Numbered from the stretch's first letter, positions 129 to 56,947 are shown. The stretch is DNA of 64,000 nt from Patescibacteria group bacterium (GCA_038064975.1 JBBTRX010000006.1:10994-74993), one strand, 5' to 3'. Numbers and translations are program-made. Notes: generated by a model not told the origin, from the letters alone.

Positions 129-190
129 TAAAGGAGTACGTTGAATGCGTTTCAGTCTCTCTTTCAGTAACACCTCGTGAGGAGTATTCC

Positions 191-514
191 ATGATCGTGG
201 CAAGAGGATCGAAAGGGCCGGAACACATCGGTGCGATCTTGAAAGGCATGGGTTTCATAGGAGGACCTAAACAGGTTTCCGATCTGACGAAGTGCGAGTG
301 CGAGAGTTTCTTGACTCCCGCCGAGTATGCCTGCATGGACTGTGGTCGGGAGAACCCCAACTTCAGTCGTGAGGAATTCGTACGTGAGAACGGCATCACG
401 CTTGAAGAGCGGCGCAGTGTCTGCTCTACCACGCATCGCAATATTCGTAGGCAGGTGCGGAGGGACCTGGAAGATCCGCGGTATTGCAGGGACTGCAAAA
501 TGAGGATCTGCTAA
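191..514 (+). CDS. Small Cys-rich protein (multiple CxxC pairs, zinc-ribbon-like), function unknown
   Basis: 107-aa ORF with a GAGGAG RBS 6 nt upstream. Motifs CECES, CMDCG and CRDCKMRIC. Local GC looks elevated (~50%). Confidence 0.45.
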   Translation: MIVARGSKGPEHIGAILKGMGFIGGPKQVSDLTKCECESFLTPAEYACMDCGRENPNFSREEFVRENGITLEERRSVCSTTHRNIRRQVRRDLEDPRYCRDCKMRIC

Positions 515-804
515 TGGTCGCTCGCATCGAAAAACGTTGTGAGAATTGTAAACGAATTCTCTATAACGAAGATGCGTTTTGCGCGCAATGTGGAGTTTCG
601 AATTCTTCCTTCTGTAGCCAGGAATTCGAAACGAAAGTAGAAATGCCGTATGTCCAATTTGTTCTTATTTCATGCACGCAGGAACATCCAGGGCTTGCTG
701 AAACCTTGGCAAACCTCACTGATGAGGAAGTGGAGATAGCATTGTTATATGTAGTCTTCTGCTCCGCGTGTGGTCACCGTCTGTTCCAAGAGGTTCACGA
801 GTGA
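514..804 (+). CDS. Small Cys-rich zinc-ribbon-like protein (start MVARIEKRCENCK)
   Basis: Its ATG overlaps the TAA of the previous ORF (TAATG), suggesting translational coupling. Contains CENCK, CAQCG and CSACGH pairs. Confidence 0.45.
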   Translation: MVARIEKRCENCKRILYNEDAFCAQCGVSNSSFCSQEFETKVEMPYVQFVLISCTQEHPGLAETLANLTDEEVEIALLYVVFCSACGHRLFQEVHE

Positions 805-893
805 TAATTCAAAGACCCTGTCGAGCTTCATCGCTCCGCAGGGTCTTTACTTATCAATTTACAACGATCGTAGAAAAATGATAAGTTTAAGAA

Positions 894-1448
894 ATGATGC
901 GATTGTCAAAAAAAGATGTTGTTCTTATTGGATTGTCAGTAATATTGGGCGGTTCTGGAGCTTCGCGAACATTGCTCTCAATAGCTCGAACGCAAATAAA
1001 AAATCAATTCAAGAAAAATATTTCCGCTGAAAAAGCTCTTAGTAAAAATTCATTTTATGTTATCCTTTCTCGCTTAAAAGAAGAGGGGCTTATTGCTAAA
1101 AATGATCATGGGTCTTGGTGTATTACCAAAGCGGGGAATATGGCAGTTTCTTTGCAACGACGTTATCTTGATTATCAAACTCGAATTGTGAATCATAATC
1201 AAAGCATGATCATTATCTTTGATATTCCCGAACGTGAGAGAAAGAAAAGAGATTGTCTGCGCACAGAGCTTATTGCTCTAAATTTCAAACAAGTACAAAA
1301 AAGCGTATGGATTGGTAATCCTCCCATACCTCGATCTTTTATAGAATATTTGCGCGATATCGAAACTATTCCATATTTACACATATTCACCGTTCAAAAA
1401 GCCGGTTCTTTACAGTTAGGCAAACTTAACAAATCTATACGATCGTAG
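894..1448 (+). CDS. PaaX-like transcriptional regulator (N-terminal winged helix plus Cas2-like/PaaX C-terminal fold)
   Basis: N-terminal wHTH-like segment (ILSRLKEEGLIAK...ITKAGN). C-terminal IIIFDIPERERKKRDCLRTELIALNFKQVQKSVWIG resembles the PaaX_C/Cas2-like motif. Confidence 0.5.
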   Translation: MMRLSKKDVVLIGLSVILGGSGASRTLLSIARTQIKNQFKKNISAEKALSKNSFYVILSRLKEEGLIAKNDHGSWCITKAGNMAVSLQRRYLDYQTRIVNHNQSMIIIFDIPERERKKRDCLRTELIALNFKQVQKSVWIGNPPIPRSFIEYLRDIETIPYLHIFTVQKAGSLQLGKLNKSIRS

Positions 1449-1452
1449 AGAA

Positions 1453-2727: not shown

Positions 2728-2783
2728 AAAAGACCCCTGCCAGCTCTGCCGAATTTTGGCGAGCGAAGACAGGGGTTGAGTGG

Positions 2784-3101
2784 CTACCAGCGAATAAAGG
2801 TGTCGTTCTTCCGATTGCCCTCAGGGGACAGTTGTCGTCGGATCTGCTTCTCCTTCACAAGGTAACGAAGAAGTTTTTTTAGGTCGAGAGGGTCAAGTTT
2901 GGGATCCATTTCTTCTCCAATGGATTCTGCAGTTGAAGCTCCGTTTGCTCTCAGAATGAAGAAGACTTGATCGCGGGGCGTTCGGGTTTTTTCCTTGCGG
3001 GTTTTACCTTTGATCATACGTTGCTTCCTTTCAGGGTTATGATCGGGGGTGTTTAGAAAAGGACATGTGGTGTTGGAGAGATTCGTTCGCAAGTACATCA
3101 A
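2784..3101 (-). CDS. Small basic protein, possibly winged-helix (likely start at internal Met MIKGK, near 3017)
   Basis: ORF in a GC-elevated patch. C-terminal half (ILRANGASTAESIGEEM...LLRYLVKEKQIRR) looks wHTH-like. Confidence 0.3.
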   Translation of the reverse strand: MMYLRTNLSNTTCPFLNTPDHNPERKQRMIKGKTRKEKTRTPRDQVFFILRANGASTAESIGEEMDPKLDPLDLKKLLRYLVKEKQIRRQLSPEGNRKNDTFIRW

Positions 3102-3273
3102 AGTTTGCTGCGCACCTGAAGCACGTGGCTTCTGGGAGAGAAACTAGCTCGGGGTCATCTCTCAGGCTCATCTTTTCTGTACTGCCGGGAATGGAAGAAC
3201 GAAGTTCTTCGTTACACATAGGACACTTTGCCACTGGTTTTTCCTCCGTAGAGACCACGTTCAGATATACCAA
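3037..3273 (-). CDS. Small Cys-rich protein (CPMC...CFRC), hypothetical
   Basis: 78-aa ORF upstream of and overlapping the previous one. Two CxxC pairs. Confidence 0.3.
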   Translation of the reverse strand: MVYLNVVSTEEKPVAKCPMCNEELRSSIPGSTEKMSLRDDPELVSLPEATCFRCAANFDVLANESLQHHMSFSKHPRS

Positions 3274-7715: not shown

Positions 7716-7786
7716 TTAAGAAAGTTGATGAGTGGACAGTTAATGAGTTGAACAGTCTACTCAAAAGGAAACGACACAAAACAAAA

Positions 7787-7817
7787 CACCCTCCGTAAAA
7801 CGAGGGTGTTTTATTTT
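7787..7817. terminator. Bidirectional intrinsic terminator (CACCCTC-CGTAAAA-GAGGGTG plus TTTTATTTT)
   Basis: Hairpin with A-run and T-run on both sides, between the convergent cupredoxin and fur genes. Confidence 0.6.
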
Positions 7818-8284
7818 GCTAGTTTAGAACATTCTTTGCATAGTCCGTAAAATTCCAGCGCATGCTCATGAATACTTTTAAAATGTTTTGACTTTTTGAG
7901 AATCGTATCTTCCAAGATCTGAATATCGCATCCCGCTATTTCTTCCACACGCGCGCATGCAGTGCAAATAAGATGGTGATGATCTTGAGCTTTTACAATT
8001 TCATAGTGGGCGTGCCCGTGGCGAAGCTCCACACGGCGGAGGATTCCTTTTTCAAGAAGGAAAGAGGTATTTCGGTAAATCGTGACCGGATCAATATGGG
8101 GGAGCTGTTTCGAAATTCCCTTAATAGAGAGAGGAAGGGAAGAATTGAATAACAGCCCTAAAATGGCAAGTCGTTGTGGTGTGGCTTTAAGTCCCAATCT
8201 TTGCAGAATGGGAGCGGGAGAATCCGGTAGAGATGGAGAATGCGGTGAGGTTGTTGCTTCGCTTGACGCTGTCATAACTATCAT
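7811..8284 (-). CDS. fur: Fur family transcriptional regulator
   Basis: Winged helix (TPQRLAILGLL), the HHHxxCxxC motif (HHHLICTACARVEE) and C-terminal CKECS, as in Fur/Zur/PerR. Confidence 0.85.
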   Translation of the reverse strand: MIVMTASSEATTSPHSPSLPDSPAPILQRLGLKATPQRLAILGLLFNSSLPLSIKGISKQLPHIDPVTIYRNTSFLLEKGILRRVELRHGHAHYEIVKAQDHHHLICTACARVEEIAGCDIQILEDTILKKSKHFKSIHEHALEFYGLCKECSKLAK

Positions 8285-8295: not shown

Positions 8296-8310
8296 TGCAA
8301 ATAATTTGCA
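8296..8310. promoter_or_regulatory. Fur-box-like 7-1-7 perfect palindrome TGCAAAT-A-ATTTGCA
   Basis: 15-bp inverted repeat 12 bp upstream of the fur start codon, in the divergent region shared with ORF 8528. Confidence 0.45.
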
Positions 8311-8527: not shown

Positions 8528-9244
8528 GTGAAAATCAACGTCATACCGCTAGACATGACAGGAGAAGTGGAACTTCCGGAAGTCTGGAGGCAGCTCCAAG
8601 ATCGGGGATTCCATGCGGATCTCTTGGATCGCGCAGACCGATTCGCACGACTTGGAGAACGAGATGGCTTCAGAGAGCAAGCGCAAGAAGTTCTTCGCAT
8701 CACCGGGGAAGGGTTTTTGAAGCCCTTCAATTCCGCCGATTTCGCCCCGCTTGCCGATGATCCGCATTACGTCTTAAAGACCAATGTGCTCGCGGCTCTC
8801 CAAAAGCTCTCGTACGATTTTAGCAATCGCGTACCCTCTTCTGTATGGAATTCTCTTGCGTGTCTTATGACGCGAGAAAACCCAACGGAAGAAGCTTCCA
8901 TTCTCTCCCAGCAAGATCGCTTGCCGATTGACTGGTGGTACGTGGATGCTGTGCTTCATGCGCTTGGAAAACCGCATGCACTCTTTCTCCATGTGCAGTC
9001 ACGCATCTTCCAAGAAAGCGGCATGTTCTTTGATCACAACTGCGACTGCGAACACAGTTTGCAGAAACCGATCGAAGGAGGAATGCTTCGCTACAGTCTT
9101 CCGAAGGAGAACATCCGCAAGGCGACAGCAGCTCTTTTGTCTCACCTGCTTTCGGAGTCAGTGCTCATCCTGGTAGACAAGCTTCCGTTTGCGATGGGAC
9201 TTTCTCCCGAAACCAATGAAGTGATGGCGCTTGAGGGCGCCTGA
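8528..9244 (+). CDS. Hypothetical protein (GTG start, GC-elevated, no recognisable domain)
   Basis: 238-aa ORF with AAGGAG 9 nt upstream of the GTG. Composition visibly richer in G+C than its flanks. Confidence 0.5.
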   Translation: MKINVIPLDMTGEVELPEVWRQLQDRGFHADLLDRADRFARLGERDGFREQAQEVLRITGEGFLKPFNSADFAPLADDPHYVLKTNVLAALQKLSYDFSNRVPSSVWNSLACLMTRENPTEEASILSQQDRLPIDWWYVDAVLHALGKPHALFLHVQSRIFQESGMFFDHNCDCEHSLQKPIEGGMLRYSLPKENIRKATAALLSHLLSESVLILVDKLPFAMGLSPETNEVMALEGA

Positions 9245-9352
9245 ACTCCCAATTCACTCCAGCGTGCGAGCTTTCACGCTTGCACTCTGGAGTACTTTTA
9301 AAAAACTTTCGAATATTCATTCATATAAAAATATAATATATCTTACAGAACT

Positions 9353-9745
9353 ATGATCTGGTCCAATTTTTTCATGACAAGTATTGTTGTTGCTGGAACC
9401 GCGGTTCTTTGGCGTAGTTTACTGAATAATTCAGCATGGCTTCGCAATGCTGTAAAAAATATTCTTCCAGGAAAAATTGCGAAAGCAGTAACCTGCGGAC
9501 TTTGCTTCACATATTGGCTTGCCCTCTTCGCTGTCATTATTTCCGATCCGCTTCGGGGATGGGTTCCGCCATGGCGCTTTGCTATGGCCGTGGAATTAGA
9601 AAGTTTATTGAGTTTTATGACCTCGTGGATGGCGATTGGATTTGGAGCAGTCGCATTAAGATTTGTCTACGTCGTTATTCAAGAATCAGTTAATTACTTT
9701 ACTCATACGCTTAATGCTTCTCACGGAAAAACACACGAACACTAA
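9353..9745 (+). CDS. DUF1360-like small membrane protein
   Basis: TM helices with the CGLCFTYW (CxxC...W) motif characteristic of DUF1360. Confidence 0.4.
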   Translation: MIWSNFFMTSIVVAGTAVLWRSLLNNSAWLRNAVKNILPGKIAKAVTCGLCFTYWLALFAVIISDPLRGWVPPWRFAMAVELESLLSFMTSWMAIGFGAVALRFVYVVIQESVNYFTHTLNASHGKTHEH

Positions 9746-9790
9746 TTTTTTTGTGAAGCACTGCCTCTATACTCTAACCCCCCCTAGCCC

Positions 9791-10231
9791 CTATCCCAAA
9801 AGTTTAAGCAATTCAAACGGATGGCGGTCTGTTCTGTTGCCGAAGATTGTTTTTGTAATGCGCTTGCGGTCGCTGGTATGAAACGACTTTTGCATGATTC
9901 GCGCGACTTGCTGGGGCGCGCAGAAATATACAGTTTCAGGTTGATGACGCTCCGCGTTGTCATGCAGTGCTTCGGCAAAAAGCTTCATGAATTCCGCACG
10001 GATTTTATCACGGATAGGTTCGCGTACCGCGCCGGAACGAGTAGCACCACGTCCACTGCGTGTCATAAAAAATCCTTCATTATCCGAATAGTGAGGGATT
10101 GGCGTCCGGATAGTTTGCAGTTCTTTGAGTGATCCGTTCTCCGCAAGGTAGAGTTTTCCCGCCCGTTCACCGGTAACGGCGATAAGAACACGTTTATTTT
10201 TAAATTGTGGAAGTTCTCGTTGTATTTTCAT
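9791..10231 (-). CDS. Host-attachment/baeRF-like (eRF1-fold) protein, tentative
   Basis: About 146 aa with N-terminal VLIAVTGERAGKLY and C-terminal VYFCAPQQVARIM...ELLKLL, resembling the host_attach (PF10116) pattern. Weak. Confidence 0.35.
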   Translation of the reverse strand: MKIQRELPQFKNKRVLIAVTGERAGKLYLAENGSLKELQTIRTPIPHYSDNEGFFMTRSGRGATRSGAVREPIRDKIRAEFMKLFAEALHDNAERHQPETVYFCAPQQVARIMQKSFHTSDRKRITKTIFGNRTDRHPFELLKLLG

Positions 10232-10375
10232 ATATAGTGGTGCATCTATAACACCAGTCGTGGCATATAAATTTCTTAAACGGGCTTTCCTGGCTTTTAA
10301 ATTCTGTTCTGTTGTTAGTTATAAGTTCTAAGTTGTCAGTTTCTGTATTTTGGCTTTTCTGCTACGATATCGGAA

Positions 10376-11854: not shown

Positions 11855-11886
11855 ACATTCCAACATTCTGCAGAATGTTGGAATGT
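11855..11886. repeat. Perfect 32-bp palindrome ACATTCCAACATTCTGCAGAATGTTGGAATGT (copy 1)
   Basis: Self-complementary with a central CTGCAG. The same sequence recurs at 13749-13780. Confidence 0.9.
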
Positions 11887-12016
11887 TGTAGTTATCAAAG
11901 TGAGTATAGGAAGTATTGTAATTTATATGCATATATGATATAATAAAGGAAGTTTCCAGCTTGGAAACCCGTTCTCCCGACGGTATTGGGAAAAGCACTT
12001 TCACAAGGATACTGCT

Positions 12017-12814
12017 ATGACTCGTTCGAAAGTCATGGTCGCGGACTCGAGCATTTCGGCTCCGCAGATGATGGATTTCTGGCGTAAGATCGGCGATGGA
12101 TCAATCGATGGCATTCGGCTCCAACGCTTCCTTCATAATCCCTCTTGGGATAGTGATAAGACGGAAGTCACGCTCGCGCGAGCGATTAACATACTCGGCG
12201 AGCAAAAAATCGTCAGCATCGATCTGGCGGCAAAAGCTCGAAAAATTGGAGTGGGATTTATTGCGGAATTCTATAATCGTAGGATTCGTTACTCTGAGAT
12301 GACACTTCGTGAGTGTGCTGAACAGAATCGCGATGGCGACGCCGACTGGCGTCTCACCTACTGTTTCGGCTTCTCGCTTCGCGAGCTTCGGGATCAGATC
12401 GGAACGGATCCGAAGAGCCAGCCTTGCTGTTACAGCAATGATTGGTGGTTGAAGAAACAAGAGGACGAGTGGGCAACGGCAAAACCCGAAACCGGCTACT
12501 ACCTCGTTGACTTCAACGGCCGCTTCGCGAGGACCTCTTGGAATAACCAAGAACGGGAAATCGCAAAGCTCGGTGGTCAGTTCTTCCGGACTCCGGAAGC
12601 GGTGATCGCCGAAGCCATCACGACGATCTTCCAAGTTCACAAAGAACGCTTGCTGGAAGAGTGGTACCATTGGGGTTCCTCTCTTGGCTCGGGCGGCGGC
12701 CGCGTGTTCGTCGGTCTCTTCGTTCAGAAGGGATGGGACCTCTACGGCGGTCTTCCTGACTACGACAGCGACGGCGACCTGCGTGTCTGTATCGCCCAGA
12801 AGTTCCAGAGCTGA
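12017..12814 (+). CDS. Hypothetical protein (GC-rich, no recognisable domain)
   Basis: 265-aa ORF with a TTGTAA-17-TATAAT promoter and AAGGA RBS upstream and a GC-hairpin terminator at 12844-12885. G+C clearly above flanks. Confidence 0.5.
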   Translation: MTRSKVMVADSSISAPQMMDFWRKIGDGSIDGIRLQRFLHNPSWDSDKTEVTLARAINILGEQKIVSIDLAAKARKIGVGFIAEFYNRRIRYSEMTLRECAEQNRDGDADWRLTYCFGFSLRELRDQIGTDPKSQPCCYSNDWWLKKQEDEWATAKPETGYYLVDFNGRFARTSWNNQEREIAKLGGQFFRTPEAVIAEAITTIFQVHKERLLEEWYHWGSSLGSGGGRVFVGLFVQKGWDLYGGLPDYDSDGDLRVCIAQKFQS

Positions 12815-12843: not shown

Positions 12844-12885
12844 CGGCCGTAGAGGGAGACCTCTGCGGCCGCTTTTAATTTTTTA
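12844..12885 (+). terminator. Intrinsic terminator (GC-rich hairpin plus T-run)
   Basis: CGGCCGTAGAGGG...CTCTGCGGCCG followed by CTTTTAATTTTTT. Confidence 0.55.
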
Positions 12886-13016: not shown

Positions 13017-13733
13017 ATGCCGAGTTTTATAAAATTTACTATCGCAATTGAAATAGCAGTTATAGTGCTGGCGTATCCCGCGAGCGCCGCTATTCCTCCG
13101 AATATTCTTATACTAGAAAAATTCGCATCAGTTCCTATTGTTACACCTCTCTCCGTATCGGAAGATATATTAAATGACGAATTAGAAACTGTAATTGAGA
13201 ATGCACCGGAAATCACGACGAATGTGAACGTTGATGTGGAGCCAAAAAAAATAGTAGAACCGGAGAAACCGGCGCCAGCCCCAAAGAAAATCTTTTCTAT
13301 TGATCAAAGCCGTCTCATTATCCCTACCATTTCACTAGATAAGCCGATTGCTCCTGTTGGTCTTACCCCTGAAGGAGATATGGATGTATTGGATGATCCG
13401 AGTCGCGTAGGGTGGTTTAACGGCCGTGCCCTGCCGGGCGAAGTGGGAAGCGCGGTCATTGGTGCGCACGTGTACCAGGCATTCGCGAATTTAAAAAAAC
13501 TCAAAGTAGGGGATGAAATATATGTTAAGCAGGCAGACGGCTCACAACTGCGTTTTGAAGTAGAGGAAATTGCCGTGATCCCTTACACGGATACTACCCA
13601 TCTTCCAAAGATTTTTAATCGTACCGATGGATTGTATCTGAACCTTATTACCTGCCACGGCGAACCCGTTCCCGGTAAGTCTACATACACGCACCGCCTT
13701 GTCGTCTACACTAAACTCGTAGCAACGACGTAA
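13017..13733 (+). CDS. Sortase family transpeptidase (class E/F-like), N-terminal TM anchor
   Basis: Catalytic His (VIGAHV), the TLxTC motif (LITCHG) and a downstream Arg (HRLV). Long Pro/Lys-rich linker after the TM. Confidence 0.8.
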   Translation: MPSFIKFTIAIEIAVIVLAYPASAAIPPNILILEKFASVPIVTPLSVSEDILNDELETVIENAPEITTNVNVDVEPKKIVEPEKPAPAPKKIFSIDQSRLIIPTISLDKPIAPVGLTPEGDMDVLDDPSRVGWFNGRALPGEVGSAVIGAHVYQAFANLKKLKVGDEIYVKQADGSQLRFEVEEIAVIPYTDTTHLPKIFNRTDGLYLNLITCHGEPVPGKSTYTHRLVVYTKLVATT

Positions 13734-13745
13734 AGAAATCTTACA

Positions 13746-13783
13746 CAACATTCCAACATTCTGCAGAATGTTGGAATGTTGTA
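13746..13783. repeat. Perfect 38-bp palindrome (copy 2; contains the same 32-bp core as 11855-11886)
   Basis: ACAACATTCCAACATTCTGCAGAATGTTGGAATGTTGT, immediately after the sortase stop codon. Confidence 0.9.
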
Positions 13784-13878
13784 ATTACTTGATTAGAAAA
13801 TCCAATTGATCTTCTGGGACTCCGATTGACTTGCCGTGCTTGGCGACGGAGAATAAAAATCTCTAATGTTTCTTGGTT

Positions 13879-17670: not shown

Positions 17671-17676
17671 TATATG

Positions 17677-17747
17677 CTGCGGGGCAGGGACTCGAACCCC
17701 GATACCATGCTCCAGAGGCATGTGTCCTACCATTAGACGACCCCGCA
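17677..17747 (-). tRNA. tRNA-Gln (anticodon CUG)
   Basis: Reverse complement reads UGCGGGG-UC-GUCUAAUGGUAGGAC-A-CAUGC-CUCUGGA-GCAUG-GUAU-CGGGGUUCGAGUCCCUG-CCCCGCA-G. Cloverleaf with U1:A72 and G73 as in bacterial tRNA-Gln. Anticodon loop CU-CUG-GA. CCA not encoded. Confidence 0.85.
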
Positions 17748-17804: not shown

Positions 17805-17866
17805 TAACTGATTAACTCATTATCTGCTTTTAACTGTTCAACTCATCAACTGTCCACTCATTAACC
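17805..17866. repeat. Intergenic repeat family 1 (iterated YAACTNAT units ...TCAACTGTCCACTCATTAAC)
   Basis: Shares the core AACTGTCCACTCAT(C/T)AAC with copies at 7722-7762, 24804-24845 and 31315-31350. Confidence 0.7.
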
Positions 17867-24804: not shown

Positions 24805-24845
24805 TCAGTTAATCAGTGGACAGTTAATGAGTTGAACAGTTTAAG
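24804..24845. repeat. Intergenic repeat family 1 (inverted orientation)
   Basis: TCAGTTAATCAGTGGACAGTTAATGAGTTGAACAGTTTAAG is the reverse complement of the 17805-17866 core. Confidence 0.7.
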
Positions 24846-24877: not shown

Positions 24878-24925
24878 TAAAAAAGAGCTCCCTCCCGTAC
24901 ATGATGTACGAAAGGGAGCTTTGTT
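24878..24925. terminator. Nested hairpin terminator (GCTCCCT...CGTACATGATGTACG...AGGGAGC) flanked by A/T runs
   Basis: Lies 3' of the minus-strand GC-rich ORF. Confidence 0.5.
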
Positions 24926-25558: not shown

Positions 25559-25720
25559 GGCGTCATCCTTTCTTGTTTTCCGTCGGCTGGCGGATTTCCT
25601 CTGCGCCGAGGAGGCACTATGGTCCGATGTGGTCATAGCGAGGAGAGGCCTTTCACTAGGTAGGGAATAAGCCGCTTTTCGCTATGACCATCTAAATTCG
25701 TATCAAAGAGCTATGAACAT

Positions 25721-31239: not shown

Positions 31240-31318
31240 TATGCAAATGATACGAAACAATAGGTTCGTCGCGTTTTACTAAACTACGACATCTTCGTCG
31301 CTCTTCACTCCTCGAACT
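31240..31318 (+). pseudogene. Truncated duplicate of the 5' end (start-codon region and leader-peptide codons) of the pilin gene at 22651-22730
   Basis: 52-nt stretch GTTCGTCGCGTTTTaCTAAACtACGACATCTTCGTCGCTCTTCaCTCCTCGAA differs from 22678-22730 at 3 positions. AATGATAcGAA upstream echoes AATGATAtGAA. The frame is closed by TAG upstream and TGA at the cleavage-site position. Confidence 0.45.
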
Positions 31319-31350
31319 GATCAACTGTCCACTCATCAACTTCTTTAACT
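31315..31350. repeat. Intergenic repeat family 1
   Basis: AACTGATCAACTGTCCACTCATCAACTTCTTTAACT, fused to the pilin 5' fragment. Confidence 0.7.
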
Positions 31351-32896
31351 AGTTGTTAGTCGTATCAAAAATACTTGTACTTCTGCCTTGGGGAGCTTGC
31401 GGAGCTTTTGGTTTGCGCCGTTCGTAAATTACGAACGAAAGGCCAAGAAGCGTTGCGAAGACAATTCCTCCTACAACAATGACTCGTTTTCTAGTAAAGG
31501 GATTCACTCCTCCTAGATCGCCAATTGTGAACGGAATCGGATCGCCAACGAGTTCGGGGACACCGTTTCGTATCGCATAAATTTTAACTAAATATTTTCC
31601 GTTGCCGAGGCGTTCCACAATAACCTGACGTGAAGCTGCATCTACAAAGAGACTTTTTTGAAGAATATTATTTTCGTCAAAAATATCAATTCGGTATCCG
31701 GTAATCCCATCGGTATTTTCCGGAGCTTCCCAGGAAATAGTAACCGTGCCGGTACCGTCCTCGTTGTCTTCGGTCGCAGCTGACTCTTCGCCAGATCCGG
31801 ATCCTGTAGGCGGTTCGTTATCTCCACCGGTTGGCGGAGGTTCGTTTCCGGAAGGAGGATTATTATTGTCTGGAGGAGGGGGTGGTGGCGGGGGAATAAA
31901 TGCACCACAGTTTGGATCTGTGAGATCAATCAGTCCATCACCATCATTATCTATATTGTCTGAGCAGAGAGCTTGCGTGTTTTCAACTCCTCCAGTTGGC
32001 GGAGGCGGAGGCGGAGGCGGAGGCGGCGGAGGCGGCGGTTCGTTGTCTCCACCGGTTGGCGGAGGAGTTCCGGACGAGGGGCTTTCAAATGTTCCTGAAA
32101 CATTTGTTTCGTTTCCCCAATTGTCTTTTGCAAATAGGATATAGGAATAGGTCTCATCAGGAATTACGGAGATCGTAAGTGTGCACGGAGTTTGTACGTA
32201 GGGGCAGACAGTGTAATTGCCGATGTACGCTGTACTTTGCGTTCCACTACCTTCCGGCCCGTACGTTACACGGTAATCCACAGGCTCATTCGCGGTAAAA
32301 GAAATTTTGACTGAATTCAATGAAAGTTCAGTTACCGTCGTCGTTCCAAGAATTGGGGGAGCGGTTTCATTTGTTTCATAGAGTCCATATTTAAACGCAA
32401 AACTTTGATCGTCTTGGCCTAAAAGCGCGGGCTCTACAGGGAAAAGAGTTGAAGCTCCTGCATTATGCGTAAGAATTTGGAATTGAGTTGAATAATGTAG
32501 TTGAAGATTCGGCATCGTCGTCACCATACGGATGCGATATTTTTTTGTGACGGTAATCGGAATTTGCGTGTCCAAATCTACATGGAATTTTGTTCCTCCA
32601 TATTTTTCCGCAATAGTAGGAATGGTAACTGTTTTTGAACTGAGGAGCGTATTTGCTTCGTCACGGATTCCAAATGTAGCAGTTCCGGATGATCCAGTAT
32701 TCGTGAGCCACACGTCAAAGCCGCTCAAAAAATCATTTGCTGCGTAGAATGGTTGGGCGGGCGTTTCTCCGAATGCGGCGAGCAGGCTTTCGTTGTCATC
32801 GGGAGCAAATTCAAAAAAGTTCGTGCCGTGCGCGAATGCAGTGCTTACGACAACAACTCCCAAAAAGATCGCGAGTAATCTATGGAGAAAGAGCAT
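31349..32896 (-). CDS. Secreted/anchored surface protein with poly-Pro linkers, Ca-binding-like DxDxDG loop and C-terminal TM anchor
   Basis: Signal peptide MLFLHRLLAIFLGVVVVSTAFA. PPPPPPPPPPPPPP and PPPPPPP runs. DNDGDGLIDLTD (EF-hand/dockerin-like). C-terminal hydrophobic helix plus ERRKPK. Confidence 0.6.
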   Translation of the reverse strand: MLFLHRLLAIFLGVVVVSTAFAHGTNFFEFAPDDNESLLAAFGETPAQPFYAANDFLSGFDVWLTNTGSSGTATFGIRDEANTLLSSKTVTIPTIAEKYGGTKFHVDLDTQIPITVTKKYRIRMVTTMPNLQLHYSTQFQILTHNAGASTLFPVEPALLGQDDQSFAFKYGLYETNETAPPILGTTTVTELSLNSVKISFTANEPVDYRVTYGPEGSGTQSTAYIGNYTVCPYVQTPCTLTISVIPDETYSYILFAKDNWGNETNVSGTFESPSSGTPPPTGGDNEPPPPPPPPPPPPPPTGGVENTQALCSDNIDNDGDGLIDLTDPNCGAFIPPPPPPPPDNNNPPSGNEPPPTGGDNEPPTGSGSGEESAATEDNEDGTGTVTISWEAPENTDGITGYRIDIFDENNILQKSLFVDAASRQVIVERLGNGKYLVKIYAIRNGVPELVGDPIPFTIGDLGGVNPFTRKRVIVVGGIVFATLLGLSFVIYERRKPKAPQAPQGRSTSIFDTTNN

Positions 32897-33845: not shown

Positions 33846-34211
33846 ATGTCAAAAATAATTAATTTCACTGATCTTATTGCATGGCAAGAGGCGCATAAAG
33901 TAGTTTTGTCGTTATATAAAGCTACGGAACAATTTCCTAATAAGGAAATATATGGACTTACTAGCCAAATGCGCCGCGCCGCTATTTCTCTGACAAGTAA
34001 TATTGCCGAAGGATTTTCTCGTAAATCTTCAAAAGAGAAAATACAATTTTATGCCATTACGTTGGGTTCAAATACCGAATTACAGAATCAACTTATGCTT
34101 GCTCGAGATCTGGGATATATTCCGCCGGAGCAGTTTCATTCTATATTTCAAGATATAATAAGAGTTCATAAACTAACTAATGGTCTTATTCGCGGTCTTC
34201 GGGAAGCATAA
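33846..34211 (+). CDS. Four-helix-bundle protein (23S rRNA intervening-sequence protein family)
   Basis: Characteristic 120-aa pattern IAWQ.A..L...IY..T..FP..E.Y.L..Q.RRAA.SI..NIAEGF, often found between def and fmt. Confidence 0.75.
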   Translation: MSKIINFTDLIAWQEAHKVVLSLYKATEQFPNKEIYGLTSQMRRAAISLTSNIAEGFSRKSSKEKIQFYAITLGSNTELQNQLMLARDLGYIPPEQFHSIFQDIIRVHKLTNGLIRGLREA

Positions 34212-39769: not shown

Positions 39770-39973
39770 TTACTTCTCAACCTCTTCGTAGAAGACAGTT
39801 ATGGCAAGCATGCCCTGATCCACAATTGTCTGAAAAAGATGTTTGACCTCAATCGGTCCAGCAAGAAATTCATTGACAAGGGTTTCTCCCAATAGTTCCG
39901 ATCCTGTTTCGATCGGACCACTGTGGTTTGCATGTTCATCTACTAGCATGACTCTGAATATTTTAACTTGCAT
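39770..39973 (-). CDS. Hypothetical small protein
   Basis: 67-aa ORF, co-oriented with the previous one. Confidence 0.3.
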   Translation of the reverse strand: MQVKIFRVMLVDEHANHSGPIETGSELLGETLVNEFLAGPIEVKHLFQTIVDQGMLAITVFYEEVEK

Positions 39974-40000
39974 GGCTAGTCCTTTCCGTTGAGGTTGCTG

Positions 40001-40387
40001 TTAGAGAATCGTTACGTCCAGTTTTTGTATTCCCCATGCACGCGCTGCTTCGTGAGATTCCATCCGGAGATCAATATGCCAGATGCCTTTCTTAGCATCC
40101 TGTCGCATACGGCCACCCGTATCATCCACTTCGCGTTCTCCAACTCCAGGAATCCAAAGCCGAGTACGATAGGGAATGAGTTTTGGATCTGCGGCGACGC
40201 CGTCGCAGATATGCGCGTCGTCACCGATTGAAGTTACTCGCTTTGTCTCACAAGCCCACTCGCCACAGCATTGCTCACAAAGGCAGTATGCGGTGACGGT
40301 CATAGGAATGGTGTCGGGCACGAGGAATTGAGCGAGCCAAACAAGTGGCCCCCAGATAAGTACCGCAAAAAGAATAAACTTCTTCAT
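40001..40387 (-). CDS. 3D (Asp-Asp-Asp) domain protein, MltA/YabE-like cell-wall-associated, secreted
   Basis: Signal peptide, then TAYCLCEQCCG...VAADPKLIPYRTRLWIPGVGEREVDDTGG...IDL, the conserved 3D-domain pattern. Confidence 0.7.
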   Translation of the reverse strand: MKKFILFAVLIWGPLVWLAQFLVPDTIPMTVTAYCLCEQCCGEWACETKRVTSIGDDAHICDGVAADPKLIPYRTRLWIPGVGEREVDDTGGRMRQDAKKGIWHIDLRMESHEAARAWGIQKLDVTIL

Positions 40388-40451
40388 CTCTCCCTCCTTC
40401 GGTTGTAAAGGTGCTTAAAAGTAGGCCTAATGGTTACACTTTTCGGATATA

Positions 40452-40480
40452 TTGTCAATATATAACCGATATGCTATAAT
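40452..40480 (+). promoter_or_regulatory. Strong promoter for rnpB (TTGTCA-17-TATAAT)
   Basis: -35 at 40452-40457, -10 at 40475-40480. Confidence 0.55.
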
Positions 40481-40487
40481 ATACAAA

Positions 40488-40866
40488 GCAATTCAGACGA
40501 CTACTGGATGTGTAGTAATACACATTTAGAGGAAAGTCCGGACACACAGTCTTCGCGCAAGCGAAGATAAAGGTAGCGGGTAACGCCCGTCAGCAGTAAT
40601 GCAGAGGTGCGAACAGTGACGCTCCGCGGCGAAAGTTTGCGGAGGAGCCCTATCCCAAGCTTGATGGCTTAATTCCGTTATAGGGAGAACAAAACGGAAG
40701 TGAAACGGCTAAATTCCTTATCTGTGTGCAAGGCCGTGTCCGTCCGCCAACCGGCGGACGGAAGTGCCGCTTGACCCTTTGAGTAATTGAAGGGCTAGAT
40801 AAATTGTCGTCCTCCGTTTCGCAGAAGCGAAATGGGACAGAATCCGGCTTACGAATTGCCGATAAC
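40488..40866 (+). ncRNA. rnpB: RNase P RNA (bacterial type A-like)
   Basis: P4 5' strand GAGGAAAGUCCGG, GGUAACGCC, and the 3' ACAGAAUCCGGCUUA (P4 3' strand). P1 pairing GCAAUUC (40488-94) with GAAUUGC (40853-59). Terminator hairpin at 40868-40893. Ends are approximate. Confidence 0.8.
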
Positions 40867-40910
40867 CGTCCAGCGAAAGCTGGGCGGTTTTTCGTTATAA
40901 GCTAGATGAA

Positions 40911-41366
40911 CTAAAACATCCCTTCGGATTCCAAATCAGCTCTTATTTTTCCATCAAGCGCGAGATTTACCATTGCGTCTGCTTCTTTATTTTGTTCTCG
41001 CGGAATATGCGTAAATGTTACGGATTTAAAATCTAATCTCATATTCCATATTTCCATAAAATATTTCTGCAGTTCCGGTTCTTGGATCTTATATTTTCCG
41101 TTCATCTGTTTCACAATAAGCTCGCTATCCATACGCATATCAATATCCGTTTTCTTAGCCATAATTTTTCCAAGCAATTGTTTTGCTTTTTTAAGCGCTG
41201 AAACAACGGCACGGTATTCGGCGACATTATTGGTTGCGTATCCGATGGTCTCGCCGTATTTTTTATTTCCCACGATAAACCCGATGCCGGCAGGGCCCGG
41301 GTTTCCGCGCGATCCGCCGTCGGTAAATATCTTTAACGTTGAACTTTGGAATAATTCTTCGGACAT
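40911..41366 (-). CDS. rnhA: Ribonuclease HI (start taken at internal Met MSEEL)
   Basis: IFTDGGSRGNPGPAGIG, TNNVAEYRA, DSELIVKQMNG and HIPREQNKEAD motifs (DEDD catalytic set). Confidence 0.85.
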   Translation of the reverse strand: MSEELFQSSTLKIFTDGGSRGNPGPAGIGFIVGNKKYGETIGYATNNVAEYRAVVSALKKAKQLLGKIMAKKTDIDMRMDSELIVKQMNGKYKIQEPELQKYFMEIWNMRLDFKSVTFTHIPREQNKEADAMVNLALDGKIRADLESEGMF

Positions 41367-41370
41367 ATGA

Positions 41371-42258
41371 TTATTTCGTATATCGCCACGGCGCTTTTTG
41401 ATCGGATGGAAATGAGAATCCCGATGCTGCTTTATGCCCTCCACCACCTAACTTCTGAGCTATTTTTGAAACATCCATTTTTTTACCGTCAGATCGTAGG
41501 GATACATCAACTCTTTTCCCATTATCGGACCAAATAACTCCGGCAGGGTATCCATTCAACATAATTTGGTGTCCTATTTCTGATTTCAGCATAGCAGAAT
41601 TGACCACACCTACGCGAACTCCGTTTAATATCGCAGGAGTAGCGCGAGAAGCAATTTCTTTTATTTTCTTTTCTTGATATGCAAGTATTGCCGATCCTTT
41701 TTCAGCTAATTTTTTCCGACCAACAGGGCTTTCAACTACTTTTGAAAGTTTATTCATTTCTATAAAAGACTCTCGAGTAAGAGTTATTCCAAATTCAGCA
41801 GTAATTTCCTTGGTTTTTGGAAGCTTAAATTTCCAGAGATCAATATCCTCTATATAACGGATGATGCGGGGAGTAGGTGTGCCTGGATGGAAATAATTCC
41901 AAGCGATCCAAGCTCCCGAATGAGTATCGCTATATCGATACTCGGGGGCACTAATAATAGCTGATTTTGAGCTTATATGATGATCTAAAATAATTATGCG
42001 CTTATTATTTTTTATGAGATTTTTTAATTCCTCTCCTCGGAATGTGAAATCAATCAAATAGATGGTTTTATTTTTAAAATTTGAATTGATAGGAATATTG
42101 TATTGTGTAGGAAAATATTCAGCTTGGGAGCCAAATTTTTTCCACGCCGCCCATGCACCAGCAAATCCGTCATTGCAATATGCATGATAAATAACCACAA
42201 TATCTTTTTTTGGATTGGCGAGCGCAAAATCTTCTGCTTTATAAATAGTATTCGCCAT
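41371..42258 (-). CDS. DHH-DHHA1 family phosphoesterase (NrnA-like nanoRNase/pAp phosphatase)
   Basis: DHH motif (ILDHHIS) and the C-terminal DHHA1 GGGHKAASGF. Confidence 0.8.
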   Translation of the reverse strand: MANTIYKAEDFALANPKKDIVVIYHAYCNDGFAGAWAAWKKFGSQAEYFPTQYNIPINSNFKNKTIYLIDFTFRGEELKNLIKNNKRIIILDHHISSKSAIISAPEYRYSDTHSGAWIAWNYFHPGTPTPRIIRYIEDIDLWKFKLPKTKEITAEFGITLTRESFIEMNKLSKVVESPVGRKKLAEKGSAILAYQEKKIKEIASRATPAILNGVRVGVVNSAMLKSEIGHQIMLNGYPAGVIWSDNGKRVDVSLRSDGKKMDVSKIAQKLGGGGHKAASGFSFPSDQKAPWRYTK

Positions 42259-53741: not shown

Positions 53742-55061
53742 TTACGCCTTCGGAAATATCACCGGCTGTTTTGCTCTCTCCGATCTCTGCATAACGTAGA
53801 AAATTCCGAGAAGGACAAGAATAAAGAAGATAATAAGCCAAAGGGGAATATTCAAGCCTAAAATAGAAGCAAGGAATCCTTTGCCTTCTACAGTAAGCGT
53901 GAGCGAAGAGTTTACCGTATGTGAAAATCCGCGCGCATCCTGATAGGTCGCAATGGCTTTAAAGGGAAGTCTGTCGCCATCATCGGCATTGCGAGAAACT
54001 TGGAGTATGAGCACGATCTCGTGGGAATCATCCGGTGCAAGCGTGCCGATATCAAACGTAAGTTTATTTCCATTTTCTTCTGTAGGCATAGGACCGGCTT
54101 CCACGGCCGTCACATCGTCCGGCAACGTTACCACAATAGAGAGTTTGCGAAGTGATCGTGCACTATCCGTATTTTCATACGAGAGTACATATTCAATTCT
54201 GTCTCCTGGACGAGGGTTTTCTGTATCGGTTGCGGATTTAAGCGTAAGGGAAATAGGAAGTGGTGTTCCGTTAGAGACCGGAGTGACGGGCGTTGGACCG
54301 GAAGGAATTACGACAGGCGGAAGATATTGAAAACTGAAAATAGTTCCCTGTTGGATGCCGGCATTTGTTTGAGCGACTGCGCGGAAATAATATGTTCTTC
54401 CTGGAACAAGACCGCTAATAAATTGGCTGATGTATCGCACGCCGGAAACATCTCCAATATTTTGAAGTGGTGTAACATTGCCAAGGTTAGTTGTTTCTCC
54501 CCATGTAAACCAGGTAACGGTAGAATTGCCGTTTGTAATAACCCATCCGTTGAGTACTGCGTTGGTTGGGAGAATGTTCGTTGCAGGATAAGTCGTTACG
54601 GTTGCGAGCGTATTGGTAGTTCCTCCGCCAGCTGGCGGACTACCACCTCCGCCGGTAATTCCTCCGCTCGTAACTGGAGCACCCGTAGTAAATGAAGTGA
54701 TAGCTCCATACACGGTCCCAAAATCATTTTTTGCCGCTGAGCGGTAATAGTATGTAGTCTTTTCTTCAAGATTAAAAAGTGTATGGGCATATTGGAAACT
54801 ACCATCGCCTTTACCGGCATATTGGTATCCGGCTGAATGTTCTATTGCTTGGGTTTTTCCCCATTCAAACCACGCAGAAGTAGAGTTTCCGTTCGGGTTA
54901 ATGGATCCCACAAGGCGCGCAGAAGTCTCGCTCACATTAATAGGTGAGTTTGTTGATACATTTGGGGCCGATTGCTGGTCAGCAAAAGCTATATGTATAG
55001 GAGATCCAAAAAGAAGCGAAATAAGGCCGAAAATGGCTGCTTTCTTGAGTATTGTAATCAT
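53742..55061 (-). CDS. Secreted surface protein: signal peptide, FN3-like repeats, DUF11-like domain, conserved C-terminal GFLAS-TM-basic tail (paralog of the 945-aa protein)
   Basis: NLEEKTTYYYRSAAKNDFGTVYGAITSFTT and GRTYYFRAVAQTNAG. C-terminus GKGFLASILGLNIP plus hydrophobic helix plus RSERAK. Confidence 0.75.
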   Translation of the reverse strand: MITILKKAAIFGLISLLFGSPIHIAFADQQSAPNVSTNSPINVSETSARLVGSINPNGNSTSAWFEWGKTQAIEHSAGYQYAGKGDGSFQYAHTLFNLEEKTTYYYRSAAKNDFGTVYGAITSFTTGAPVTSGGITGGGGSPPAGGGTTNTLATVTTYPATNILPTNAVLNGWVITNGNSTVTWFTWGETTNLGNVTPLQNIGDVSGVRYISQFISGLVPGRTYYFRAVAQTNAGIQQGTIFSFQYLPPVVIPSGPTPVTPVSNGTPLPISLTLKSATDTENPRPGDRIEYVLSYENTDSARSLRKLSIVVTLPDDVTAVEAGPMPTEENGNKLTFDIGTLAPDDSHEIVLILQVSRNADDGDRLPFKAIATYQDARGFSHTVNSSLTLTVEGKGFLASILGLNIPLWLIIFFILVLLGIFYVMQRSERAKQPVIFPKA

Positions 55062-55164
55062 GGGTCATATTATATAGCGTATTCGTAATTTAGTCAAGTT
55101 TTCACGATAATTGCCGTATAAAGGGGGACTTGACTTCTATTGTGCTATATGCTAGGATGAGAGA

Positions 55165-55430
55165 GTAAAGTAAGATCATCTACATGGCTCGCCTTCGTAG
55201 GTGACCGGGTTGGGAAAGTAAGACGTCTTCGGCGTCTTCCCGCATCGGGCGATACTCCTCAACAAGAGAGACGAGGATTCTCGCAACAGAGACCGATATA
55301 ACTTTCCCCTGCACCTTCCTGTAGTCAGAGTCACTTGGTCAGAGTCATTGTCGCTGCTGCGCTTGCGCTGCTACACTGCTCTACTGCATCCCCGGAACCG
55401 CGCGTCGGTTCCGGGGATCTTCTTTTTTAT
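55165..55430 (+). ncRNA. Candidate small non-coding RNA (promoter-to-terminator unit, GC-rich, no ORF above 6 codons)
   Basis: TTGACT-17-TAGGAT promoter at 55130-55158. Terminator CCCCGGAACC-GCGCGTC-GGTTCCGGGG plus T-run at 55390-55428. No coding potential. Confidence 0.3.
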
Positions 55431-55477
55431 GAATAAAAAATCGTCCGATGCGTTCTGCACCGGACGATACTGGTTTT

Positions 55478-55798
55478 TCAGGCGGTCATCACCGCCTCCG
55501 TCATGAGACGGTAGTGCTCACTGAGCGCGTTCTTGGTTTCTTCCGAGATCTCCATTTTGAGGATGCCCTTTTTGCACGTCTCTTCCACAGCGTCGTGCTT
55601 CGCGCAGCTGGGCCTGTCGTAGGGAGTGATGAAGACGGCACCACCTTCGGGGACGGCAATCAGCCAGTTGTCTCCGATGGCGTAGGTGCCCTGATCTCCC
55701 ATGCGGAATTTTCTCCTGAACGGCACGCCCTTCAAGACGAGATGGCTTGCGTCCACGAACCCCGTTTCTTCCAAACGTCGGATCACGTGACTGGTCAT
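55478..55798 (-). CDS. Hypothetical protein, GC-rich (start tentatively MTSHV; alternative MGDQG with AGGAGA RBS)
   Basis: Long ORF in a GC-rich block. Upstream TTGATA-17-TATTGT promoter with a palindromic operator. Own hairpin terminator at 55442-55466. Confidence 0.4.
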   Translation of the reverse strand: MTSHVIRRLEETGFVDASHLVLKGVPFRRKFRMGDQGTYAIGDNWLIAVPEGGAVFITPYDRPSCAKHDAVEETCKKGILKMEISEETKNALSEHYRLMTEAVMTA

Positions 55799-55836
55799 GA
55801 GGCGAGGGAGCTTTCTCTCGTTAAGTGAAAAGGAGA

Positions 55837-55860
55837 ACACGAGACATGAGTGTCTCGTGT
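55837..55860. promoter_or_regulatory. Operator-like palindrome ACACGAGACA-TGAG-TGTCTCGTGT abutting the -10 of the promoter of ORF 55478-55798
   Basis: 10-bp perfect inverted repeat with a 4-nt spacer, positioned at +1 to +25 of the predicted promoter. Confidence 0.45.
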
Positions 55861-55996
55861 GACAATATGTACTGTTCACGAGTTTATCAAACACTATTTG
55901 AAATTTCAACCTCGCCTCGCCGTAGCTTCAGCGAAGGAGGGTTCGCCTCACCGAATCTAGGCGGGTTTATCTCGCCGAAACTTTAGTGGAGGCGGA

Positions 55997-56947
55997 CTAT
56001 GGCTGCAGAGCTTCTTCAACTTCTCCGTTTACGGAGATAATAACAGCAGTCACCGTAGGAAATTGTTTAAGTGTTTTTTCTATCTGCGCACGGATTGCGG
56101 TAACACGGCATGAACCTCCAACATTCTTATCTAACTCTTCGCTAAAATCTGCGTATGCCGTTCCATTAGTAATAGTAAGACTCTTGAGGAGTACGCCGGT
56201 ATTAATATTCGTTTTATAATTCTCCTGTAATTCATAAGTGAGTGGTCCTTTCAAAAGTTCGTTCAAAGCAGCTTTGCCAACGCTCTGTGTTTTTGGAACG
56301 GAACGGGTAACGGGGAAAACAGCTGTGCATGTTGCTTGCGGATCAAGATCGTCATTACTGAAATAGACTTGAACACTCGTTGTTTCAGTACTCGTAAAAC
56401 GAACAGGGATAAAGAGCGCGTCATCATGCTCTGCAAGCCCGGACGGATTATCTTTTCGGAGGATTAGCGTTCCTGTCGCGGTAGTGGGAGCGGTAAAGGA
56501 AATTATGCTGGAGTAGGGAACAAAATCTTCAGTCATCCATTCTCCTTGGGCGGTCGCGTAGTGTTGAACGAGTAGGTTGCCGTTGCCGTCTCGAAGCTCA
56601 ACAGGAAAACTTGCTTCAAAAAACCAATATCCTCGCGCTTCGCCGGTAATAGAAAGCGGAGAAGTTACTACCTCATTCGGTCGAGGGTTTGTGATTTTAA
56701 TTAAATTTGTTTTTTCCAACTCGTTACCGATGCTTTCAGTAAACGTAGTGCCGTCGGGCCGCTTACACTGGCGAGGATAGGATTCCATAATCGGGTATCC
56801 TGCTGCAACACACGCTTCAAAGCTTGTGATGTCTTTTGATTCTGAATAGTCGCCGAGTGCGTATACTCCCCAGAAAATAATTCCGGCGAGAAGGAGTAAG
56901 AGCGCGATGCTCGTTATCATTACATTTTTTGAGTAGTGGTGTGTCAT
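55997..56947 (-). CDS. Gmad2 Ig-like plus GerMN domain protein, membrane-anchored
   Basis: N-terminal TM. Gmad2 pattern (PRPNEVVTSPLSITGEARGYWFFEASFPVEL). C-terminal GerMN (KAALNELLKGP...GS...AIRAQIEKTLKQFPTV). Confidence 0.6.
   Translation of the reverse strand: MTHHYSKNVMITSIALLLLLAGIIFWGVYALGDYSESKDITSFEACVAAGYPIMESYPRQCKRPDGTTFTESIGNELEKTNLIKITNPRPNEVVTSPLSITGEARGYWFFEASFPVELRDGNGNLLVQHYATAQGEWMTEDFVPYSSIISFTAPTTATGTLILRKDNPSGLAEHDDALFIPVRFTSTETTSVQVYFSNDDLDPQATCTAVFPVTRSVPKTQSVGKAALNELLKGPLTYELQENYKTNINTGVLLKSLTITNGTAYADFSEELDKNVGGSCRVTAIRAQIEKTLKQFPTVTAVIISVNGEVEEALQP

Follow-up and report, generated by a model that had tools for sequence, protein, structure and literature searches.

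Diversity-generating retroelements (DGRs) diversify their own target genes: a reverse transcriptase (RT) copies a template repeat (TR) to cDNA with errors at adenines, and the cDNA replaces the C-terminal variable region (VR) of the target gene, reshaping the ligand-binding surface of its product. DGR variable proteins are common in bacteria of the candidate phyla radiation (CPR) (PMC8144416, PMC5758913). DGRs are enriched in these bacteria, and one cellular clade is limited to them (clade 2, Roux et al. 2021, PMC8144416). CPR targets are typically devoid of transmembrane or other recognisable domains (PMC8144416), and remote targets without an adjoining RT, as well as atypical G+C, are already known (PMC5758913). 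Here we analysed 64,000 nt of DNA, hereafter the window, which spans about positions 10994-74993 of a 155,102-bp contig (Hain_H51_01um_R1_31_length_155102 in ENA; NCBI proteins MEK76121xx, locus tags AAB407_) of a Patescibacteria (CPR) metagenome-assembled genome (MAG) from Hainich groundwater. Six G+C-rich genes stand out in this window. We consider it likely that these genuine compositional outliers make up a heterogeneous class, which is neither one family nor the outcome of one process. Two of them, 24932-25546 (-) and 12017-12814 (+), would be solo DGR variable proteins, each with its own promoter and terminator. Of the others, 8528-9244 (+) would join a metal module linked to a Fur regulator and a membrane protein, 28920-30440 (+) would be vertically inherited, and 191-514 (+), with its neighbour 514-804 (+), and 55478-55798 (-) would be small genes whose strands were missed in the public annotation. 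For brevity, we name genes by their first coordinate.

The G+C content of the window is 44.3% (standard deviation of 300-bp blocks, 4.7%). We computed G+C per codon position for 71 curated open reading frames (ORFs), and the same six genes took ranks 1-6 for both overall G+C (GC) and G+C at third codon positions (GC3), with z-scores of 2.4-5.8: 191-514 (GC 0.54, GC3 0.65), 8528-9244 (0.52, 0.55), 12017-12814 (0.54, 0.63), 24932-25546 (0.60, 0.74), 28920-30440 (0.53, 0.56) and 55478-55798 (0.57, 0.76, the largest GC3 of all). The remaining 65 genes have a GC of 0.436 +/- 0.031 and a GC3 of 0.409 +/- 0.060. The original prediction had singled out these six genes as G+C-enriched, and the non-uniform GC3 of the window agrees with it. 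It had also added a milder patch at 2784-3273, which is no outlier (z about 1), and had paired 191-514 with 514-804, whose G+C is an ordinary 0.45; other G+C-rich blocks, such as the RNase P RNA gene at 40488-40863, were left out of its list. Pfam domains above threshold are absent from all six genes, compared with 16 domainless genes among the 65 others (Fisher p = 5e-4), and searches of NCBIfam, PHROG and PADLOC gave no match to them. Each block consists of one ORF with codon-position periodicity, flanked by genome-typical AT-rich promoter and terminator sequence. The idea that these genes form a family did not hold up: the best E-value in an all-against-all BLASTP comparison was 0.02, between two zinc-ribbon-like ORFs, and a profile comparison of the 24932 and 12017 families was negative.

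The gene at 24932-25546 encodes 204 aa, with longer ORF variants starting from 25558 and 25636. It belongs to a family of 676 homologues, and the best 120 of these 676 are about 206 aa long, 66-80% identical and without Pfam domain. The family alignment shows a strongly conserved N-terminal part of about 175 residues and a C-terminal scaffold, W-C-x-A-x-F-x-R-W...R-x-V-x-V...WWFAGVRK, that carries hypervariable positions. In three of the six further genomes that were examined (loci L001, L031 and L032), the target is followed by a 101-nt repeat, an Avd-like gene and an RVT_1 reverse transcriptase, and the three RTs are 72-74% identical. Every mismatch between TR and VR in these cassettes lies at a TR adenine (15/15 in L001, 20/20 in L031, 18/18 in L032). 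Since adenine-only mismatches are the defining signature of DGRs, these relatives are demonstrable DGR targets. In the three other genomes (L003, L004 and L030) the gene is solo, as it is in the window. The VR of the window's copy (24942-25042, minus strand; G+C 0.68, A 0.15) aligns base for base with the TR of L001, from which it differs at 14 of the 28 adenines and at 3 of the 73 other bases (p = 3e-7), so that 14 of the 17 mismatches are at adenines. The copy in the window therefore bears the signature of adenine mutagenesis, and these sequence comparisons identify 24932-25546 as a DGR variable (target) protein, present here as a solo copy.

Sequence and structural modelling together place 12017-12814 (265 aa, also a solo copy) in a second DGR variable-protein family, unrelated in sequence to the first and with a predicted C-type-lectin fold. 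An exhaustive HMMER search retrieved full-length relatives in more than 50 clusters at 50% identity. Genome scans found the family in Saccharibacteria, Doudnabacteria, Berkelbacteria, Parcubacteria and other Patescibacteria, and also on two Acidobacteria-binned contigs; it is often located at contig ends. The C-terminal scaffold, WYHWGxSLxSxGxRVxVGxFxxxGxxV...LRVCLxRKF, again has hypervariable positions within it. The predicted VR (residues W216-F263; 12662-12805, plus strand) is the G+C-richest and A-poorest stretch of the gene (G+C 0.61 and A 0.15, versus 0.52 and 0.25 elsewhere in it). The AlphaFold model (pLDDT 88.7) matches structures with the C-type-lectin / FGE fold, among them those of the DGR proteins TvpA, Mtd and TaqVP. 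In one relative, L018, the C-terminal region recurs in inverted orientation at a distance of 1.7 kb; of the 16 mismatches, 13 are at adenines of this repeat, and the RT encoded between the target and the inverted repeat shares 47% identity with the L001 enzyme. The MAG of L018 has a second target on a different contig (L011), which differs from the TR of L018 at 14 of 32 adenines and at 10 of 117 other positions, which shows that remote targets occur in this family. Outside L018, the examined stretches of the 12017-family loci contained no RT-like ORF or TR.

The two genes of the window share with known DGR targets, such as Mtd of a Bordetella phage, TvpA of Treponema and TaqVP of Thermus, a C-terminal VR on a conserved scaffold and, in the model of 12017, the fold of these proteins. 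Their relatives hold cassettes of target, TR, Avd and RT with adenine mismatches, as other DGR targets do, and like the targets of CPR clade 2 they have neither a transmembrane segment nor a recognisable domain. Unlike the targets of cassette DGRs, both stand alone, the 64 kb containing neither TR nor RT, and unlike known targets each comes with a consensus promoter and a terminator of its own. Their diversification would occur in trans, by a remote DGR, or would have depended on one that was since lost. The two families also differ from solved DGR proteins in being unrelated in sequence to them and to each other; PDB sequence searches with profiles of both families gave no match. Finally, the targets of these families are 10-18 points G+C-richer than their CPR hosts and richer than the adjoining RT. 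We did not find such an excess over host or RT described in the DGR surveys PMC8144416 and PMC5758913.

The G+C excess does not have a single cause. In both DGR targets the VR is a local G+C maximum and is poor in adenine (G+C 0.61-0.70, A 0.13-0.18; A 0.28 in the TRs), a pattern that is expected where random bases take the place of template adenines. The family-wide richness extends to the rest of these genes, and together with the loss of adenines in the VR it would produce a two-layered excess. The relatives of 24932 have 54-61% G+C between flanks of 41-48%, and those of 12017 have 50-65% between flanks of 39-60%, with 59-61% in the 'Acidobacteria' contigs of 64% G+C. An exception is the distant 12017 relative L017 (30% identity), which is not enriched (0.40 vs 0.45 in its flanks). 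Relatives of 12017 hold a GC3 of 0.56-0.83 in CPR genomes of 39-49% G+C despite saturated synonymous sites (four-fold sites 0.22-0.50 vs about 0.29 expected), which argues that their bias is maintained and is not a residue of import. More generally, G+C richness recurs in the relatives of four of the six genes (patchily for 8528) and is therefore not a mark of recent import. In the intact cassettes (L001 5970-8560, L031 and L032), the RT genes have a host-like G+C of 0.37-0.45, with nearly saturated four-fold sites (0.30-0.39 vs 0.25). The target, spacer, TR and Avd of these cassettes are 75-100% identical in nucleotide sequence, versus 50-70% for the 3' half of the RT. This contrast between target and RT could reflect either mosaic exchange of the half with target and TR or a nucleotide-level constraint on that half.

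Recent horizontal spread is indicated for the 24932 family alone, whose relatives in the six other CPR genomes lie in unrelated genomic contexts. Across the seven genomes, and with the VR excluded, its four-fold sites are 61-84% identical (mean 0.74 vs 0.40 expected from the codon usage of the family), whereas those of PilB from the same genomes are saturated (0.27-0.35 vs about 0.25 expected); at the protein level, identity is 71-79% for 24932 and 45-47% for PilB. Nucleotide conservation starts at the ribosome-binding site and ends at the stop codon, and between the window and L004 it also takes in the promoter and the structured leader, which is about 170 nt long. The unrelated contexts and the unsaturated synonymous sites, set against a saturated PilB, are best read as recent horizontal spread of the family among CPR lineages. 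In L031, the cassette lies amid a serine recombinase, a helix-turn-helix (HTH) regulator and an N6/N4 DNA methyltransferase (490-2052 and 8673-10370), which suggests that it is carried there on an integrated mobile element.

The lipoprotein candidate at 28920-30440 has a very different history. This putative secreted protein or lipoprotein of 506 aa starts with MSISRLYLCMMLLIAFAC, where a hydrophobic core precedes A-F-A-C, a sequence that departs from the canonical lipobox ([LVI][ASTVI][GAS]C). It has a single homologue (44% identity) among 5.8 billion clustered proteins, in a sister genome of 55.5% G+C (L019). There it has the same location, next to and divergent from the orthologous gene for the FN3 surface protein (945 aa), and is similarly G+C-shifted (62.7%). 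The 44% identity falls within the 40-57% of the neighbouring genes, and its four-fold sites (0.27 vs 0.25 expected) are saturated as in these neighbours. Synteny and neighbour-like divergence indicate, at the level of sequence, that the gene was inherited vertically and is specific to this lineage. The product would partner the large FN3 surface protein, either as a secreted protein or as a lipoprotein.

The gene at 8528-9244 (238 aa; 229 aa in the public call, which starts at 8555) belongs to a widespread uncharacterised family, with dozens of clusters at 50% identity and no match to Pfam or NCBIfam models. Its invariant residues are W107, D140, H144, H170, C172, C174, H206 and P220 (HNCDC motif). 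Its structural model is confident and helical, has no solved structural relative, and may represent a new fold. The gene is divergent from a Fur-family regulator gene (7811-8284, minus strand; PF01475, E 2e-21), and the intergenic region between them holds a palindrome, GCAAATAATTTGC (8297-8309), that is a candidate Fur-family operator. Downstream lies a membrane protein of 130 aa and ordinary G+C (9353-9745, plus strand), a conserved partner whose homologue directly follows that of 8528 in L023 and L024, as in the window. The 8528 homologue adjoins a Fur homologue in L020 and L024, and in L022 it stands between CopCD-like/YcnI-like genes and CbiM/Q/O genes. In the window, cupredoxin and ferric reductase genes lie just beyond the pair of fur and 8528. 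This arrangement recalls the Fur/Zur/PerR regulons and their adjacent metal-handling genes: a divergent fur gene with a palindrome in between, a linkage to Fur that recurs elsewhere, invariant His, Cys and Asp residues, and neighbours such as those listed here and in L022. It differs from known members of Fur regulons in that the family is uncharacterised and that both its regulation by Fur and its metal binding are inferred. We conclude that 8528-9244 is not an inserted cargo gene; to judge from its conserved residues and neighbourhood, it most likely serves as a metal-binding part of a module under Fur control.

The last two genes are small. The Cys-rich ORF 191-514 (107 aa) has a stop codon that overlaps the start of the next ORF (TAATG), 514-804 (96 aa), which is also Cys-rich, resembles a zinc ribbon, and is probably co-transcribed with it. 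Zn_ribbon_3 matches 514-804 with an E-value of 2.8e-5, under the curated cutoff, and 191-514 has a weak sub-threshold zinc-ribbon match. The strongest GC3 outlier, 55478-55798, encodes 106 aa. Neither 191-514 nor 55478-55798 had a homologue among the best 150 hits listed (E better than 4e-24), in a search that is weak for short proteins, and 514-804 found only itself among the best 150 hits listed (to E 4e-24). An indexed search with the concatenated small ORFs failed to recover even the known identical entry of 514-804. The public annotation calls antisense ORFs instead, at 164-436 (-) and 55448-55828 (+) (the latter MEK7612243). These ORFs have a high GC1 (first-position G+C) and a moderate GC3 (0.60 and 0.53 for 164-436, 0.73 and 0.53 for 55448-55828), a shadow pattern that is also seen antisense to both DGR-target genes. 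The perfect promoter at 101-128 lies on the plus strand, and the terminator at 55468-55440 on the minus strand. Codon-position G+C and the strands of these signals thus favour 191-514 (+) and 55478-55798 (-), and the public ORFs are probably antisense shadows of them. A perfect 10-bp inverted repeat, ACACGAGACA-CTCA-TGTCTCGTGT (55837-55860), lies 39 nt upstream of the start codon at 55798; it could equally act as operator, as leader hairpin or as terminator of the gene upstream (55997-56947). The regulatory palindromes that had been placed beside some of the G+C-rich genes thus exist at 8297-8309 and 55837-55860, with functions that are candidates only.

Two observations concern the surroundings of these small genes. 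In the G+C-rich block of 55478-55798, a promoter-like sequence (55130-55158) and a strong terminator (55388-55418) enclose about 260 nt without ORF or Rfam match (55130-55425, plus strand). On the plus strand, 55165-55425 is more stably folded than shuffled controls (z -3.3) and is a candidate small RNA; sensitive Rfam-type scans around 55060-56000 gave no match. Between the Cys-rich pair and uvrC, 894-1448 (+) encodes a PaaX-like protein whose central domain resembles Cas2; the window showed neither a CRISPR array nor further cas genes.

The original prediction described each of the six genes as an autonomous unit of promoter, ORF and terminator. An exact TTGACA-N16-18-TATAAT occurs only twice in the 64 kb (0.03 expected), at 101-128 (+) and 25750-25721 (-), and both of these perfect sigma-70 promoters stand directly 5' of outlier genes. 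The first (TTGACA-16-TATAAT) comes right after the uvrA stop and precedes 191-514, and the second, which is extended (TTGACA-18-TG-TATAAT), precedes 24932-25546. Promoter-like sequences matching 10 of the 12 positions stand before 12017 (TTGTAA-17-TATAAT with an extended TG, 11916-11944, plus strand) and before 28920-30440 (28810-28838, plus strand), the latter back to back with an 11/12 match that serves the divergent FN3 surface-protein gene (28790-28762, minus strand). No match reaching 9/12 was found ahead of 8528, and none better than 9/12 ahead of 55478. Strong terminator-like hairpins follow four of the genes: 12844-12871 (+) after 12017-12814 (12 pairs, 9 of them G-C, and a T run), 24886-24920 (-) after 24932-25546 (16 pairs, T run), the bidirectional 30477-30502 after 28920-30440, and 55440-55468 (-), 10 nt past the stop codon of 55478 (12 pairs, T run). 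The hairpin after 8528-9244 (9257-9292, plus strand) is imperfect. The unit structure is therefore largely borne out, though not for the promoters of 8528 and 55478. The leader of 24932 (25547-25715, minus strand, about 170 nt) forms a long stem, GGTCATAGCGA...TCGCTATGACC, with a folding z of -3.0, and is conserved in the leader of the L004 homologue; Rfam gave no match, and it is possibly a cis-regulatory RNA.

Several short repeats accompany these genes. A perfect 38-nt palindrome, ACAACATTCCAACATTCTGCAGAATGTTGGAATGTTGT, is present in two identical copies (11855-11894 and 13745-13787) and nowhere else in the window (0 expected); the pair brackets exactly 12017-12814 and the sortase gene 13017-13733. 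A motif of about 37 nt with GTGGACAGTTRATSAGTT has four copies (0.01 expected), at 7723-7759 (+), 24807-24843 (+), 17829-17865 (-) and 31315-31351 (-). All four are intergenic, one of them directly past the terminator of 24932-25546, and the motif may be a repeated regulatory or REP-like (repetitive extragenic palindromic) element. Self-BLAST also revealed short repeats of 42-65 nt and 83-94% identity at 22678-22730/31264-31316, 31195-31257/39519-39455 and 25796-25837/39453-39412.

The other genes of the window are typical of CPR bacteria, including uvrA/uvrC, a type IV pilus cluster, large FN3 surface proteins, sortase, thioredoxin/DsbD genes, ribosomal proteins, PGK, CTP synthase and ECF (extracytoplasmic function) sigma factors. 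Among RNA genes, tRNA-Gln was the only match at the Rfam gathering score in the window. The outlier genes were rejected as RNA genes on this result and on the blank sensitive scans of 55060-56000. A bacterial class A RNase P RNA (RF00010) of full length lies in a different block, at 40488-40863 (+) (99.6 bits vs a gathering score of 100, E 3e-31); an extended promoter (40452-40480, 11/12 match) precedes it, a terminator (40864-40889) follows it, and it accounts for the G+C-rich block 39965-40909. Between def and fmt, 33846-34211 (+) encodes a stand-alone 23S-rRNA-IVP protein (PF05635, E 8e-36; weak bAvd match), of the four-helix-bundle family of the DGR Avd, with no TR or RT beside it. Three independent Logan assemblies (ERR3858113-115) of the same population all end at about 63762, within a HAD / P-type-ATPase-like ORF (62758-63837).

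Some of our results count against the explanation that we prefer. No TR for 24932 or 12017 was found within the window (BLAST of the VRs; self-BLAST with word size 8), and a Pfam scan of the 71 ORFs found no RVT_1 reverse transcriptase, but only an RNase H (RVT_3) at 40911-41447 and the Avd-like protein at 33846-34211. The VR of 12017 is changed, relative to the TR of L018, at 18 of 32 adenines and 46 of 116 other sites (p = 0.11), the two being too diverged for such a comparison. The explanation does not account for the G+C excess outside the VRs. The homologues of 8528 are G+C-enriched in certain genomes and not in others, and its metal-binding role is drawn solely from conserved residues and gene neighbourhood. 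Finally, all six genes had been described as orphans. This does not hold for 24932, 12017 and 8528, which have hundreds of homologues, nor for 28920, which has one; for 191-514 and 55478-55798 it is provisional, because the search was limited. As for the missing machinery, about 9 kb of contig upstream of the window is also devoid of RT, but the lack of a local RT does not preclude target membership, because remote targets are known (PMC5758913). The 90% clusters of the window's proteins vary solely in start codons.

The alternative that survives best is that the six genes are cargo, inserted independently and recently from a G+C-richer host or as an effector repertoire, and that their excess is foreign DNA yet to be ameliorated. 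The atypical GC and GC3 of all six and their insulated promoter and terminator units would fit such a scenario, as would the presence of the 12017 family on Acidobacteria-binned contigs of high G+C, the identical palindromes around 12017 and its sortase, and the mobility of 24932 across contexts, with its unsaturated synonymous sites. These traits, including the lack of domains and the variable context of 24932, are those of horizontally acquired ORFan islets. Yet, unlike in such islets, there is no integrase or transposase in the window (Pfam scans), its sole tRNA (17676-17747) adjoins no outlier gene, and no flanking direct repeats were found at these genes. Relatives of 24932 and 12017 were absent from IMG/VR viral contigs and phage records, and those of 8528 from plasmid records. 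Two of the six genes are syntenic or in conserved groups: 28920 is equally G+C-shifted at the same place in L019, with saturated synonymous sites, and 8528 belongs to a Fur-linked group that recurs elsewhere. Contrary to what amelioration predicts, G+C richness persists in families with saturated synonymous sites, as in the 12017 relatives of CPR hosts, and the RT beside a G+C-rich target has the composition of its host. No secretion signal or effector-like domain was found, save for the signal peptide of 28920. Independent insertion is thus supported for 24932, by its horizontal spread, and contradicted for 28920 and 8528, which fit the condition that the original prediction itself had named as refuting it; derivation from a host and an effector repertoire found no direct support, and the best-characterised pair consists of DGR variable proteins. 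As an account of all six genes, we regard recent cargo as unlikely.

We find it very unlikely that the excess stems from translational codon bias in very highly expressed genes. Two perfect promoters do drive two outlier genes, and the excess is greatest at third positions, but GC3 is ordinary in genes for which high expression is expected (0.37 for L9, 0.45 for L27, 0.44 for AhpC and 0.44 for PGK), 8528 and 55478 lack good promoters, and the four-fold identity in the 24932 family, well above that expected from its codon usage, points to shared ancestry or site-specific constraint. An artefact (chimeric assembly, contaminating reads or structured RNA genes) is scarcely credible: one G+C-rich block does hold an RNA gene, that of RNase P RNA, and the ORF-less unit at 55165-55425 folds stably relative to shuffled sequence, but identical sequences recur in independent ENA, NCBI and Logan assemblies, the ORFs have codon periodicity, four genes have homologues, the G+C step recurs in relatives from other CPR genomes, and Rfam matched only tRNA-Gln at the gathering score.

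Returning to the heterogeneous class that we favour, a further and more speculative proposal, to which we give a minor chance, is that a constraint acting on nucleotides and linked to the retroelement keeps DGR targets of CPR bacteria rich in G+C, poor in adenine and conserved even at synonymous sites. It could limit off-target adenine mutagenesis or serve the structure of the target DNA or mRNA, and solo copies with their own promoters, like the two of the window, would form a dispersed receptor repertoire, diversified in trans by a remote DGR. If this were true, a local G+C spike would be a signature by which such targets could be found from sequence. Three aspects may be new: solo targets with their own consensus promoter, two unrelated target families within 64 kb devoid of RT, and the target/RT contrast itself.

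Overall, six domainless hypothetical genes of CPR bacteria gain categories, and G+C spikes in reduced genomes should not automatically be taken for fresh horizontal transfer. Our analysis also exposes two public gene calls that are probably on the wrong strand and flags a widespread, confidently folded, Fur-adjacent family without solved relative. Finally, the presence of two binding proteins that would be diversified by retroelements bears on how CPR episymbionts recognise their hosts or ligands.

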